Below are positions 53,940-62,377 of a stretch of 64,000 bases of DNA, piece by piece; position 1 is the first letter of the stretch, and each line of letters opens with the position of its first letter. Origin of the DNA: Callorhinchus milii (taxonomy: Eukaryota); contig NW_024704742.1 in NCBI RefSeq assembly GCF_018977255.1, positions 24,864,001 to 24,928,000 on the forward strand. The letters are read 5' to 3'. The notes beneath the pieces were generated by a model that was given only the letters and a program-made list of their open reading frames with translations, was not told the origin of the DNA and ran no database searches. The position numbers and the translations under genes are program-made.

Positions 53940-54440
53940 TAGGACGACGTTTTTCCAACTAAAAAAAGAAAAAGACGCCCAAGACGCCCCATTGGGCGTG
54001 AATCCGCCCGACCTGAGCGGGGTGGTGCGGGGCCGCCCCCCAGTGGTTAATGTGCCGGGGAGCGCTGCGGAACCAAGGAGGCGGGAGGGCGGGCGGGAGG
54101 GTGTGGGGGGGCGTTTTAAGGGGTTGCACTCGCATCTGTGAAGCCGAGGGATTGGGGGGAAGAGTTTGGCCGCGGCGGCTCCTCTCTGCGATGCTGAGCC
54201 GTTGGGAGCGGGCGGCGCGAGGCTGGGCTCGGGCTCGGGCTCGGGCTCGGGCTCCGGCCCCCATCCAGGCCCCGGGGGGTCCCGGGCCCCACTGTCGAGG
54301 GCTCGGCGCCCGGGGGCTGTGCGGCGCCGGGCGCAGCGTCAGGATCGCCTGCGCCTCGGGCTTCTGGGGGGACACGGCCACCTCAGGTGAGGGGCCAGGG
54401 CTGGGCTGGGCGGGGGGGCGGCAGAGGAGGGGTCGGTGGC
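53940..54440 (+). promoter_or_regulatory. CpG island / promoter of the AtuA-like gene
   Basis: Abrupt GC- and CpG-rich patch with GC boxes (GGGCGG/CCGCCC) in otherwise CpG-poor DNA, spanning exon 1. Confidence 0.75.
54191..54386 (+). CDS. AtuA/DUF1446 (acyclic terpene utilisation) family gene, exon 1
   Basis: ATG at 54191 inside a CpG island; Arg/Ala-rich leader then [16 protein letters not shown], the family N-terminal RIG/AxxSGFWGD motif; CAG|gtgagg donor. Confidence 0.88.
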
Positions 54441-55400
54441 GGGGGGGGGTTAGCGGGGTTGGCAGGGGGGGGTTGGCAGGGGAGGGGTTAGCGGGGTTGG
54501 CAGGGGAGGGGTTAGCGGGGTTGGCAGGGGGGGGTTAGCGGGGGGGGGGGTTAGCGGGGTTGGCAGGGGGGGGGTTGGCGGGGGGTTAGCGGGGTTGGCA
54601 GGGGAGGGGTTAGCGGGGTTGGCAGGGGAGGGGTTAGCGGGGTTGGCAGGGGGGGGTTAGCGGGGTTGGCAGGGGAGGGGTTAGCGGGGGTTGGCAGGGG
54701 GGGGTTAGCGGGGTTGGCAGGGGGGGGTTAGCAGGGTTGGCAGGGAGGGGGTTGGCAGGGGGGGGTTAGCGGGGTTGGCGGGGGGGGGTTGGCAGGGGGG
54801 GGTTTAACGGGGTTGGCAGGGGAGGGGTTGGCGGGGGGGGGGGTTAGCGGGGTTGGCAGGGGAGGGGTTGGCAGGGGAGGGGTTGGCAGGGGGGGGTTGG
54901 CAGGGGAGGGGTTAGCAGGGGGGGGTTGGCAGGGGGGAGGGGTTGGCGGGGGGGGGGTTAGCGGGGGAGGGGTTAGCGGGGGGGGGTTAGCGGGGTTGGC
55001 AGGGGAGGGGTTGGCAGGGGGGGTTTAACGGGGTTGGCAGGGGAGGGGTTGGCGGGGGGGGGGTTAGCGGGGTTGGCAGGGGAGGGTTGGCAGGGGAGGG
55101 GTTAGCGGGGTTGGCAGGGGAGGGGTTAGCGGGGTTGGCAGGGGAGGGGTTGGCGGGGGGGGGGTTAGCAGGGTTGGCGGCGGGGGTTAGCGGGGTTGGC
55201 AGGGGGGGTTAGCGGGGTTGGCAGGGGAGGGGTTGGCGGGGGGGCTTAGCGGGGTTGGCAGGGGAGGGGTTGGCGGCGGGGGTTAGCGGGGTTGGCAGGG
55301 GGGGGTTAGCGGGGATTGGCGGCGGGGGTTGGCAGGGGAGGGGTTAGCGGGGAGTGTGGTTGGCAGGGGAGGGGCCAGTGGGGGTTGGCAGGGAAGGGGT
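54440..55400 (+). repeat. G-rich degenerate minisatellite
   Basis: About 1 kb of variants of GGGTTAGCGGGGTTGGCAGGGGA with variable G-run lengths. Confidence 0.95.
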
Positions 55401-55721
55401 TGGCAAGGGGTGTGGGTGAGGGGTGTGTGTGAGTGCGGGGATGGGGATGGGGGGTGTGCTTTGTGTGGTCAGGGCCCCACAACTGGTTAGCAGATCCAGC
55501 CATGGAAGCTTTCCCTGTCGATGCCTTCTTGCCAGGTTGAACTGCCTTTTGACACTCATGGTGGAGCTCCACGTCGCCCCCACCCCAGTGGCCAATTGGA
55601 CCAGGATTCCCCCAAAGGGGTGGCTTGGCGTCTTACACACAGAATTGTTATGCAGCCAAACAGCAGCACCGCGGGGCTGTTCAGGTGGACTTTAAAAATC
55701 CCATGACGCTATTTAAAAGTC

Positions 55722-56760
55722 ACCAGCGGGGTACCCCAAGGATCCATCCTTGGCCCCCTCCTCTTTCTGATCTATATCCCTCTTGGGGATGTCATCCGCA
55801 GACATGGGGTACACTTCCACATGTATGCAGACGACACCCAACTCTATTTTTCCACCTCACTTTGCGACCCCCAGTCCCCTGATGTTCTGTCAGCTGCCTG
55901 TCAGACATCAGGAGCTGCCGCGATGAGCGCGAATTTCCTTCAGCTGAACGTTGACAAGACGGAAGCCAACCTCTCTGGCTCTCGTCAATGTCTAAAATCT
56001 CACGGATCTCACCTCCTCCACCTACCCGACCTCCCCCTAAAACTCTCCGAACCTGTACGCACCTAGGGGTCAGGTTCGACCCCCAATTATCCTTCCTCCC
56101 CCACATCCGGTCCCTCACCAGCACCGCTTTCTTCCACCTCCGATGCATCGCCCATCTCCGCCAATACCTCTCTCCGAAAGCCGCTGAAACCCTCTATGCC
56201 TTTGTCACCTCTCGGCTGGACTATTCAAATGCCCTCCTCGCCGGTCTCCCATCCGCTACCATCCACAAAATCCAGGTCATCCAAAACTCTGCCGTCCACA
56301 TTCTCACCCGCACGAAAGTCCGCTCCCCAATCACCCCAGTCCTTGCCAGACTGCACTGACTGCCTATCCCAGAGAGGATCAACTTCAAGATCCTCATCCT
56401 TGTATTCATGTCCCTGCGCTCCTCTGCACCCCCCTACCTCTCTGACCTCTCTCCTCAAAACAGTACCCGCTGCCTTCGTTCCTCCGGGTCTGGCCTCCTC
56501 ATCGTCCCCCGAGTCCTCCGCTCCACCCTCAGCAGCCGTGCCTTTAGCCCCGAGACTCTGGAACTGCCTTCCTCACTCCCTTCACCTCGCTCCCTCTCTT
56601 CCTATTTTCAGGTCTCTGCTGAAGACCTTTGTTTTCGACCGCGCCTTTGATCACCTTCCTCTCCCTCCCCCTGGCTCGGTCCCCGGGATCCGTTTTGTAA
56701 AGCGCTCTGAGACGCCGTCTGGTGTGAAGGGTCCTATATAAATCCAAGTTGTTGTTGTTG
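55722..56760 (+). mobile_element. L2-type LINE 3' fragment, same subfamily as 21236-24800
   Basis: MYADDTQLY...SRLDYSNALLAGLP; 3' end AAGCGCTCTGAGACGC...TATATAAATCCAAG(TTG)n matches the FGA intron-2 copy. Confidence 0.92.
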
Positions 56761-59950: not shown

Positions 59951-60843
59951 TTATTGTTAACTCAGTGTTGTGGGGGTCACTGAGGTGGGATTTGATGTGT
60001 GGAACCTATCAAGGGAGTGTGGAATTGAAATGTTACTGAATTCTTGCAACATAAGTTTCTTGTCTTCAATCTAGTGATTGCATTTCTTTATAATGTATTG
60101 ACCATATTATTTCCTGTGATTACTATTGCTGGAATTACTGGAACTAATACAGTCAAAATTAAGTGAATGGGCCGAAAATTGCAGTATTCCTAATTTAATA
60201 ATTGGAATGTGTTTTGAAATAACCCCTCGATTTCTGAACAGTTGTAATGTTAGAACTCAAACCAGTTAAAAAGTCACAGGTTTTGGATTTCAAATGCTGA
60301 AAATAGTTCTCTGAGTTTATTCAGGGAACGCTGGCCAGATTCAATATGAATTAGATAGAACGATACAGCATGGAAACAGGCCATTCGGTCCAATTATTCC
60401 AAGCTGAACTACTTGTGAATTAATTCAAAACGTGTTCCTTAACTACGAGTTAGTGAAGTGTCCCAGGAGTAAGTTTAGAGAATTTGGCTTCCACACACAG
60501 AAATGGTAGTCAACGAGTTTCTGAAATCTTCAGGCTTGACTGGGCTGAAGCTCTGATCTAGTTGGGCAGTATCAGTTAGACCCTATGCAGGCAGTACATT
60601 ATAATAGGAGAAAGAGAAGAAGCCTTTTAGTTAGAGGGTAATTTCGGAGGTGTAACGCTGAATGTGTTTTGCGTTCTGTCGACAAATAAATAGTTGATGC
60701 ACTTTACAGTGAGCATGTGGAGTTCTTTGAGACGTCCTCCCCGATGTGAAAGGTGCTGGATCGAATTCAATGGTTATTCTTATTTTGTGCAATTTGACCG
60801 ATGTGGGTGTTAATGAGATTTTACTTACACTTGTTTCTCTCAG

Positions 60844-60944
60844 TTCCACAGTTGGTGTTTGATGGGAACCTGGATTTCCTGGTCTTTGATTACCTGTCTG
60901 AGATCACCATGTCGCTGCTCACTGCAGCAAAAGCCAAATCACCT
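60844..60944 (+). CDS. AtuA/DUF1446 family gene, exon 2
   Basis: Pyrimidine tract plus cag; [34 protein letters not shown] (LDxLVFDYLxExTMS motif); gtgagt donor; phase 1-0. Confidence 0.92.
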
Positions 60945-62307
60945 GTGAGTGTTTACCTTCACTATTAAAAGGTTTGGCGTTTTTTCAGTGATATTTCCAG
61001 CACAGTCGACATAAACTACTTCCATTTATATAGCCCCTTTGATGAGAGGGAGGTTTGGAATACAGTGCAATATAGTGTACAGTGTATGTGAATATATATA
61101 ATAATCTTGCAATTGGTTTAGCGCTTTATCATGTCAAACTGTCTCAAAGCACTTCACAGGATATACTGTAAAATAATGATTTCCAAATTTTCTGGGCTCA
61201 AGGCCCCCCAGGACATTAGGTATCCTGACTAAGGCCCCTCCCCCCCCACTCGGGCTACTAGTGTTTCCGGTGGGGGGTTTGACCAAGGCCTCCCTCCCTC
61301 ACAGTCTCCACAAAATGCTGCCCTGATACCTTCCACTGAAACCTTGGGAATGCACCTTTCACATCCACTCGTTGGGCTGCATAGCCTTTGCACACTATTC
61401 ATTGTTGGAGGAGGGTTGCCTACAAAATGCACAGTCACTATATTTGATAGTAAATCCTGTTGAGGTGCTTCGAAGTGACTTGATTTGAAAGGTGCTTTAT
61501 CATATGTAAGGATTATTATTAAATGTAAGTGACCAGCTGGCTTCACACATGGCGGGAAACTAGGCATGACATCAGCATCAACCTCATAAACCAGAAGCCA
61601 GACCAACAGCCTTTTTTTTCAGATACTTTACATCTCTGTGTCTAAAAATGTTATTGATTCAAAAAAAAACCCTGTTGTAACCACTTCACCCTGTAGTACT
61701 CCTTGTTGCATGTGTTCATAGCACTGCTTGCTATAATAATAAAAAATAATAATCCTTGTATTTTATGTAGCGCCTTATTCAAGACATCTCAAAACGCTTT
61801 GCAGGATATACTGTAAAGTGAGTTGACTGTATATTTTGTTACATACACAGTATATTATAAGGGCACGAAATCTCTCTCTTCATACAATGCTCAATGAGTC
61901 GCACCTCCACACATGCACACACCGTTTCCCATGGTTGGGAAGATGTGCATGTGATCTGCTCCCAGAACAGTAGCAGTATAGCAATACCATTCCTCAGGAG
62001 GTCAGAGAAACAGTGCTGCATCCCTACTAAAGAACTGGAACAGTATCCCCTCCTGCATCTGTCCTGACAGTAGCAACTCTTCCAGCTGTAAGCACCACAA
62101 ATGCCTATAATTCTCCACATAGCTCACGCAACCAAAGACCTTTTCATCTATGAGTCTGACATAGATCGTGTGGGACCTTGTGCTCATTGTAGAGCATCAT
62201 CATGCAGGGACTTTTTGAGGAAAATTGAACCTTTTTTAAAAAAAAACTTCTTCTGATCCATTGCAAATAGTAGAGAAGAAACTTACAATATTTTCTCTTT
62301 GTTTCAG

Positions 62308-62377
62308 GATCATGGCTATGCACCTGATTTTGTGCAGGTTGCGATGGCCCCGTTTATCAAAGATATTCACAAAAGAG
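62308..62377 (+). CDS. AtuA/DUF1446 family gene, exon 3; the gene continues beyond the window
   Basis: tttcag acceptor; [23 protein letters not shown] (GYAxDF motif); gtaatg donor. Confidence 0.9.

Follow-up and report, generated by a model that had tools for sequence, protein, structure and literature searches.

A conserved, probably mitochondrial AtuA-family protein of animals encoded between FGG and LRAT in the elephant shark Callorhinchus milii

A stretch of 64,000 nucleotides from the genome of the elephant shark Callorhinchus milii (the window; assembly G000, 991.5 Mb, contig C1, positions 24864001-24928000) contains the promoter and the first three exons of an intact gene of the AtuA family, the remainder of which lies in the 60 kb of downstream sequence that were analysed with it. 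The gene product is a conserved animal member of a family whose members are mostly bacterial, as judged from a protein cluster search, and it is a speciality neither of sharks nor of aquatic animals. Taking the observations as a whole, we lean, with slightly better than even confidence, towards the reading that this is the elephant-shark orthologue of a single-copy animal gene, and that its product, in which an AtuA domain is fused to an AtuA_ferredoxin domain, is a mitochondrial lyase that releases acetate.

The coding part of the gene begins within the window on the plus strand. Coding exon 1 (54191..54386), which runs from an ATG start to a GT donor and aligns with orthologues and with RNA-type contigs, encodes a basic leader of 49 amino acids (aa; 54191-54337) and then the AtuA domain up to its 16th residue, and the conserved domain start VRI[GA]CASGFWGD at its 3' end aligns with shark orthologues. 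Intron 1 (54387..60843, 6457 bp) has GT-AG borders and a junction that is seen in contigs. Coding exon 2 (60844..60944, bounded by AG and GT) covers positions 19-50 of the AtuA profile and by itself exceeds the Pfam cut-off for AtuA (24.8 versus 22.8 bits, E-value 1.1e-5). Coding exon 3 (62308..62377, likewise bounded by AG and GT) is 100% identical to the public protein P0003, and the first part of intron 3 (62378..64000) runs on past the end of the window. The initial annotation, made from the letters of the window, had joined these three exons in frame across GT-AG junctions, and its exon borders are exact: the joined exons encode 122 residues with zero stops. A profile search of the whole genome returned four AtuA-profile matches, all belonging to one locus just downstream of the window. 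When two public proteins were aligned to the downstream DNA and the result was refined with a splice-aware script, a gene model of 20 coding exons was obtained, all with AG/GT borders and separated by 19 introns, with a coding sequence of 1971 nt (656 aa) spanning 62,418 bp. Exon 4 begins 173 bases beyond the end of the window and exon 20 finishes 52,608 bases beyond it. The 17 exons downstream are intact and encode the remainder of the 569-aa P0003 at 100% identity, and the full translation corresponds letter for letter to exons 1-2 plus P0003. The Pfam score of exon 2, the conserved domain start, the 17 downstream exons and the spliced contigs described below together argue that the coding stretches in the window are more than chance matches. 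P0003 and P0002 are both public proteins named for Callorhinchus milii, and both stored models lack exon 1 and with it the putative targeting leader; the first residue of P0003 is a Met within exon 2, and the model of P0002 opens in intron sequence 5' of that exon.

Transcript evidence comes from a search for sequencing runs containing the exon 1 region, four of which were aligned to 53700-54400. The contig from run X1 (672 nt, depth 106.6) covers 54129-54386 and that from X2 (1520 nt, depth 296) covers 54156-54386; both come from one study, and the RNA label of both is a guess. After 54386 they share a common loose end, TTCCACAGTTGGTGTTTGATGGGAACCTGG, which is identical to the first 30 bases of exon 2 (from 60844). 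As 6.4 kb are skipped at a GT..AG pair, these contigs represent the spliced form, and in both of the two RNA-type runs aligned the transcript has exon 1 joined to exon 2 by splicing; for this junction, the lack of spliced reads that would have refuted the initial annotation does not apply. The promoter is covered by X18 at a depth of about 5 and in part by X19 (depth about 3), and both look genomic. The CpG island in which the gene had been said to start is present, with a GC content of 0.72 and a CpG observed/expected ratio of 0.83 at 53950-54400, compared with 0.33 and 0.44 at 53000-53900; from GC content, CpG ratio and contig starts, the promoter and 5' untranslated region were placed at 53950..54190 (plus strand). 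X1, X2 and X18 read G and C at 54298-54299, where the assembly reads A and G, a difference that by codon reading changes Gly37 to Arg and is attributable to an allele or an assembly error. An in-frame ATG further upstream (54050) was rejected as the start codon, as the contigs begin 3' of it and the orthologues start at the equivalent of 54191. An apparent joint in X1 from 53902 to 54169 was disregarded, as one side comprises only 21 letters within a poly-G run, and stretches that no contig covers were given no weight as evidence.

The assignment to the AtuA/DUF1446 family is borne out by domain searches as well as by the 20-exon model. All three full-length vertebrate proteins scanned against Pfam matched AtuA (E-values 6e-122 to 6e-137) and AtuA_ferredoxin (about 1e-32 to 1e-34), and in P0003 both domains lie in the same chain (PF07287, AtuA, E-value 6e-122; PF23544, AtuA_ferredoxin, E-value 4.2e-34, residues 455-558). 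For a comparison with bacteria, the best 80 loci were taken from a collection holding one genome per prokaryote species, and partner genes were counted within 8 kb. The proteins at these loci, mostly from Pseudomonadota (Pseudomonas, Marinobacter, Alcanivoracaceae and Acinetobacter), show 44-52% identity over residues ~60-665, which is nearly the whole mature protein. AtuC-like genes flank 58 of the 80 loci, AtuF-like genes 55 and both together 54, while AtuD-like and AtuE-like genes were counted at 53 and 35. At the locus of P. nitroreducens, whose protein is 51% identical over residues 63-659, a divergent regulator is followed by AtuA, a short-chain dehydrogenase/reductase (SDR), a carboxyltransferase, an acyl-CoA dehydrogenase, an enoyl-CoA hydratase, a biotin carboxylase with a carrier domain and a further SDR, an order which we take to be that of atuRABCDEFG. 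Bacterial atu clusters serve to remove the beta-methyl branch from terpene-like acyl-CoAs. Judged from these alignments, the shark protein is a close full-length homologue of the AtuA encoded in such clusters. Compared with the AtuA of the Pseudomonas atuR-atuABCDEFGH cluster, it shares both Pfam domains and their order, is about 51% identical along almost its entire length and, discounting the 49-aa leader, is of similar size; the animal gene differs in its 19 introns, its basic N-terminal leader and its position between FGG and LRAT, with no atu neighbours. In an alignment of 64 sequences, many residues are invariant or nearly so from bacteria through animals.

The leader is a feature by which the animal proteins differ from their bacterial relatives, in which 4-13 residues precede the start of the conserved domain. 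The shark leader, described at the outset as Arg-rich and nearly free of acidic residues, contains 10 R/K and 1 D/E among its 49 residues, and this character proved to be conserved. Among 226 vertebrate proteins surveyed, 194 with the domain-start motif were used and 32 partial or variant models were left out. All 194 leaders are 32-213 aa long (median 59), the net charge is at least +3 in 192 of them, and R+K and D+E account for 16.1% and 3.0% of leader residues compared with 9.9% and 11.1% of the mature part. In 109 of the 194 proteins, the motif R-x-[FYL]-[STA] lies within 25 residues of the leader's end, compared with 31 of 4479 control windows, although the leaders are mutually related, so these counts are not independent. 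The orthologues begin ML(R/S)xW. Between classes the leader sequence is poorly conserved, its character being kept while the sequence drifts, and in a structure model of the shark orthologue P0004 the leader is disordered. These properties fit a mitochondrial presequence, and the enzyme is probably mitochondrial. It has to be considered whether the leader is no mitochondrial signal at all, with exon 1 being merely a GC-rich first exon and the enzyme cytosolic, peroxisomal or secreted. This would accord with the poor conservation between classes and with the fact that part of the shark leader, its (AR)4 run, is translated from a microsatellite. However, length and charge bias are retained by nearly all of the 194 orthologues despite the drift, and a cleavage-type motif by 109 of them, as is typical of presequences; the bacterial relatives have no such extension, and no hydrophobic signal-peptide core was visible in the leaders inspected, so that a non-mitochondrial leader seems unlikely. 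The microsatellite itself (GGCTCG x6.5; 54221..54258, plus strand) encodes the Ala-Arg run, as a consequence of which leader length may vary between individuals. Contigs of X1 are seemingly cut at this repeat (54221-54258).

The distribution of the gene extends well beyond the vertebrates. Identity to P0004 is 62% for the sponge Oscarella, 65% and 63% for the bivalves Mya and Dreissena, 57% for the hemichordate Ptychodera, 59% for the tunicate Ciona, 52% for Macrostomum and 47% for Corallochytrium; the named animal relatives (52-65%) are thus mostly closer than the best bacterial match (52%). With a coelacanth protein as query, the best 120 matches include turtles, birds (among them chicken), amphibians (among them Xenopus), squamates, three marsupials, the echidna and two bats. 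The occurrence in birds, lizards, turtles, amphibians and invertebrates runs counter to the proposal in the initial annotation of a trait of aquatic vertebrates, suited to the squalene-rich shark liver. The statement that mammals lack the gene has to be modified, as it is present in the echidna, four marsupials (koala, bilby, sugar glider and mouse opossum), five bats, a mole and a hedgehog. When the search was started from a bat protein, the matches above the first sauropsid comprised five bats, the mole, four marsupial rows and the echidna, with the partial hedgehog protein ranking lower; no primate, rodent, carnivore or ungulate protein (364-1159 aa) stood above the sauropsid matches, those genomes themselves not having been searched. 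Such proteins would be expected to outrank those of turtles, yet none was listed, which points, indirectly, to loss of the gene in most placental mammals. Among the matches listed, bats and eulipotyphlans (mole and hedgehog) are the only placental mammals with an orthologue. The bats, mole and hedgehog in question are insect-eaters, and retention of the gene may be related to diet.

The history of the gene was examined with two quick maximum-likelihood trees, one of 51 rows and one of 48 rows after three long rows had been dropped, with support given as the Shimodaira-Hasegawa-like approximate likelihood ratio (SH-aLRT). Animals form one clade (SH-aLRT 96-99) in which the vertebrates are united (96-97) and the inner order follows the species tree. 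A group of animals, Macrostomum, Corallochytrium and one unnamed protein is supported at 93-98, and the animal-containing group is nested, without resolution, among sequences of Pseudomonadota. The up to 52% identity to AtuA of Pseudomonadota and the mostly bacterial membership of the family could be explained by a recent horizontal transfer of bacterial atuA into fishes or cartilaginous fishes, or by contamination of the assembly. However, 19 spliceosomal introns interrupt the gene, FGG and LRAT flank it on a contig of 139 Mb, most named animal relatives are closer than the best bacterial match, and the animals fall into a single clade that follows the species tree, which makes either event extremely improbable; recent transfer, which a phylogeny had been proposed to distinguish from vertical descent, is not supported by these trees. 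Rather, the trees together with the introns point to vertical inheritance within animals since early in their history.

Insight into fold and chemistry comes from a single relative of solved structure, the citramalate lyase CmlAB of Raoultella planticola (PDB 9ERQ and 9EVF). A profile built from 64 sequences matched only chain A of 9ERQ/9EVF in the PDB (E-value 2.9e-10, over part of the chain). The AlphaFold (AF2) model of P0004 has a predicted local distance difference test score (pLDDT) of 89 and a predicted template modelling score of 0.87, with residues 1-62 below 50 in pLDDT. When this model was used as the query in Foldseek, 9evf_A, from an entry titled 'citramalate lyase - ADP - pyruvate', was the sole match at an E-value of 0.001 or below (3.8e-20), and 9evf_B aligned with probability 1.00 and a template modelling (TM) score on the target of 0.67. 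VIA-align superimposed 9evf_A on model residues 64-519 with Z 31.6 and a root-mean-square deviation of 3.7 Å over 424 of 456 residues, the next entry reaching Z 9.4. As far as the predicted model can tell, the animal protein is a fused form of the two-subunit CmlAB lyase fold. According to a preprint, this enzyme splits citramalate directly into pyruvate and acetate. CmlAB is the sole family member with a known reaction, in which acetate is cleaved off a tertiary hydroxy acid. CmlAB and the shark protein share the fold of both subunits and differ in that CmlAB consists of two separate subunits, in gene context and probably in substrate.

These likenesses raise the alternative that the animal protein is a true CoA-independent citramalate lyase like CmlAB, which would clear citramalate or related C5-dicarboxylates (e.g., products of itaconate or mesaconate metabolism) in mitochondria. 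This explanation draws on the only solved relative, both subunits of which match the model and whose activity is stated in the preprint. On the other hand, identity to CmlA is 17%, a match by sequence needs a profile, and the protein is far closer (about 51%) to the AtuA of atu clusters, which lies beside acyl-CoA carboxylases and not beside genes of the methylaspartate pathway. A citramalate lyase is consequently a doubtful candidate, and orthology to CmlAB was rejected on the same grounds, namely an identity of 16-17% and closest bacterial relatives in atu-type rather than methylaspartate-pathway contexts. For an Atu-type enzyme, the most likely reaction, by analogy, would be the removal of acetate from the tertiary alcohol 3-hydroxy-3-isohexenylglutaryl-CoA, an assignment that draws on the chemistry and on general accounts of the pathway. 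The description of the family's activity as unresolved is thus outdated in part, in that a distant member is a solved citramalate lyase.

In the acetate-releasing lyase that we favour, the 49-aa Arg-rich leader would be a cleavable presequence directing the enzyme to the mitochondrial matrix. There, it would act as a carbon-carbon lyase, releasing acetate from a tertiary 3-hydroxy acid or acyl-CoA (e.g., a 3-hydroxy-3-alkylglutaryl-CoA), in a step that would come after a carboxylation of the methylcrotonyl-CoA-carboxylase type and a subsequent hydration. Several points weigh against this reading. Apart from the relatedness of the 194 leaders, the shark's own leader has no clear R-x-[FYL]-[STA] near its end, and both the presequence rules and the cleavage motif (Arg at -3 or -2) were applied as general background. 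To our knowledge, the reaction of AtuA itself has never been demonstrated biochemically. Among the 80 closest bacterial loci, 18 have no AtuC/D/E/F-like gene nearby, and an exon-level search of the shark genome with a bacterial AtuC, a weak test, found only two AtuC-like loci and no extra carboxylase that might be a dedicated geranyl-CoA carboxylase, so that a pathway of the Atu type would need to borrow an existing carboxylase. A PDB search with the single sequence returned no match and did not detect CmlA, to which identity is only 17%.

A final point concerns the fungal protein VdAtuA3 of Verticillium dahliae, which is reported to bind complex I at its 24-kDa subunit and to be dispensable when citronellol is the growth substrate (PMC13399572), a finding that also weighs against the favoured reading. 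It resembles the animal protein in being a eukaryotic AtuA-domain protein tied to mitochondria, and it suggests an alternative in which the animal protein is mitochondrial but acts mainly in a non-catalytic or regulatory way, for instance by binding a subunit of the respiratory chain as VdAtuA3 does. According to the same paper, however, the zebrafish homologue shows no interaction and the axis is called fungus-specific, and VdAtuA3 is described as very distant from the animal homologues, with another C-terminal domain and a fungus-specific partner (PMC13399572). The many invariant or near-invariant residues shared from bacteria to animals are also as expected of an enzyme, and a chiefly non-catalytic role appears quite improbable. 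Returning to the lyase, a broader and speculative proposal, for which we hold little confidence, is that animal AtuA performs the acetate-releasing step of an unrecognised mitochondrial route for beta-methyl branches that is ancestral to animals and retained in relation to diet. In such a route, the branches of isoprenoid or methyl-branched fatty acids would be carboxylated by an enzyme of the methylcrotonyl-CoA-carboxylase type, hydrated and cut off as acetate, in parallel to peroxisomal alpha-oxidation. The route would have been kept with diets rich in such lipids (fishes, birds, reptiles, insect-eating bats, moles, hedgehogs and the echidna, as well as the terpene-eating koala), whereas most placental mammals, with the human and mouse lineages among them, would have lost it.

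The surroundings of the gene agree with what had been described. Exons of FGG were recognised at 38245..46348 on the minus strand through matches to Fib_alpha and Fibrinogen_C, and the identity as the gamma chain follows from the best PDB matches, which are gamma chains (E-value 7e-34 versus 1e-16 for beta). FGG and the AtuA gene are divergent, in keeping with the head-to-head arrangement initially proposed; the distance from the AtuA start codon to the most 5' recognised FGG exon is about 7.8 kb, and a shared promoter is therefore not implied. The order along the contig is fibrinogen beta (plus strand), fibrinogen alpha with its alphaE domain (minus), fibrinogen gamma (minus), AtuA (plus) and an LRAT-domain exon (plus) about 16 kb past the AtuA stop, which places LRAT next door as expected from the human gene order. 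The fibrinogen cluster is complete (window 1-46348 plus upstream sequence), and the C-terminal alphaE domain of fibrinogen alpha, encoded by a single exon, finds its best PDB match in Fibrinogen-420 (E-value 1.3e-91). An extra Fib_alpha exon lies on the minus strand about 12.5 kb upstream of the window (C1:24851370-24851543).

Intron 1 of the AtuA gene contains several repeats. A G-rich minisatellite at 54437-55401 (965 bp, period ~38, ~24 copies, with GGGG runs on the coding strand) begins 51 bp into the intron, just 3' of the promoter; it could form G-quadruplexes and may be the reason for the absence of exon 1 from the stored models. An inverted repeat at 59774-59952 (84 nt, 89% complementary, with an 11-nt loop) resembles, by eye, sequence in the 3' flank of the gene (L010 ~3190-3320) and is probably a dispersed hairpin-forming repeat. 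Two diverged copies of an interspersed repeat (71% identical) lie in the same orientation at 56098-56194 and 57786-57882.

The names under which the orthologues are stored call for comment. In fishes, the orthologues carry the label 'uncharacterized protein lratb.1', the symbol being attached in many annotations, or 'si:ch73-132f6.5', in line with what the initial annotation had stated for teleosts, and these proteins, together with chicken LOC100857197 and Xenopus LOC100485159, are orthologues that are 64-83% identical and have the same domains and the same type of leader. Among the matches listed, none of 120 AtuA-type proteins so labelled or related contains an LRAT domain. In published papers, lratb.1 denotes a true LRAT-like gene, and the symbol, which is misleading on AtuA proteins, was probably carried over from the adjoining LRAT gene. 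No literature on the animal protein was found under DUF1446, ch73-132f6.5 or five LOC identifiers in a search that did not extend to supplements, and the literature on acyclic terpene utilisation included no animal gene by title or abstract among the matches listed.

Overall, the interpretation first placed on the window is partly supported. The gene encodes a conserved and probably mitochondrial enzyme that most vertebrate classes possess but that the searches made here did not reveal in the mammals commonly used as models, an absence through which it would have escaped study. For annotation, the label 'lratb.1' wrongly suggests a retinol acyltransferase. With a relative of solved structure and known lyase reaction at hand, the function of the animal protein is testable in zebrafish, Xenopus and chicken.

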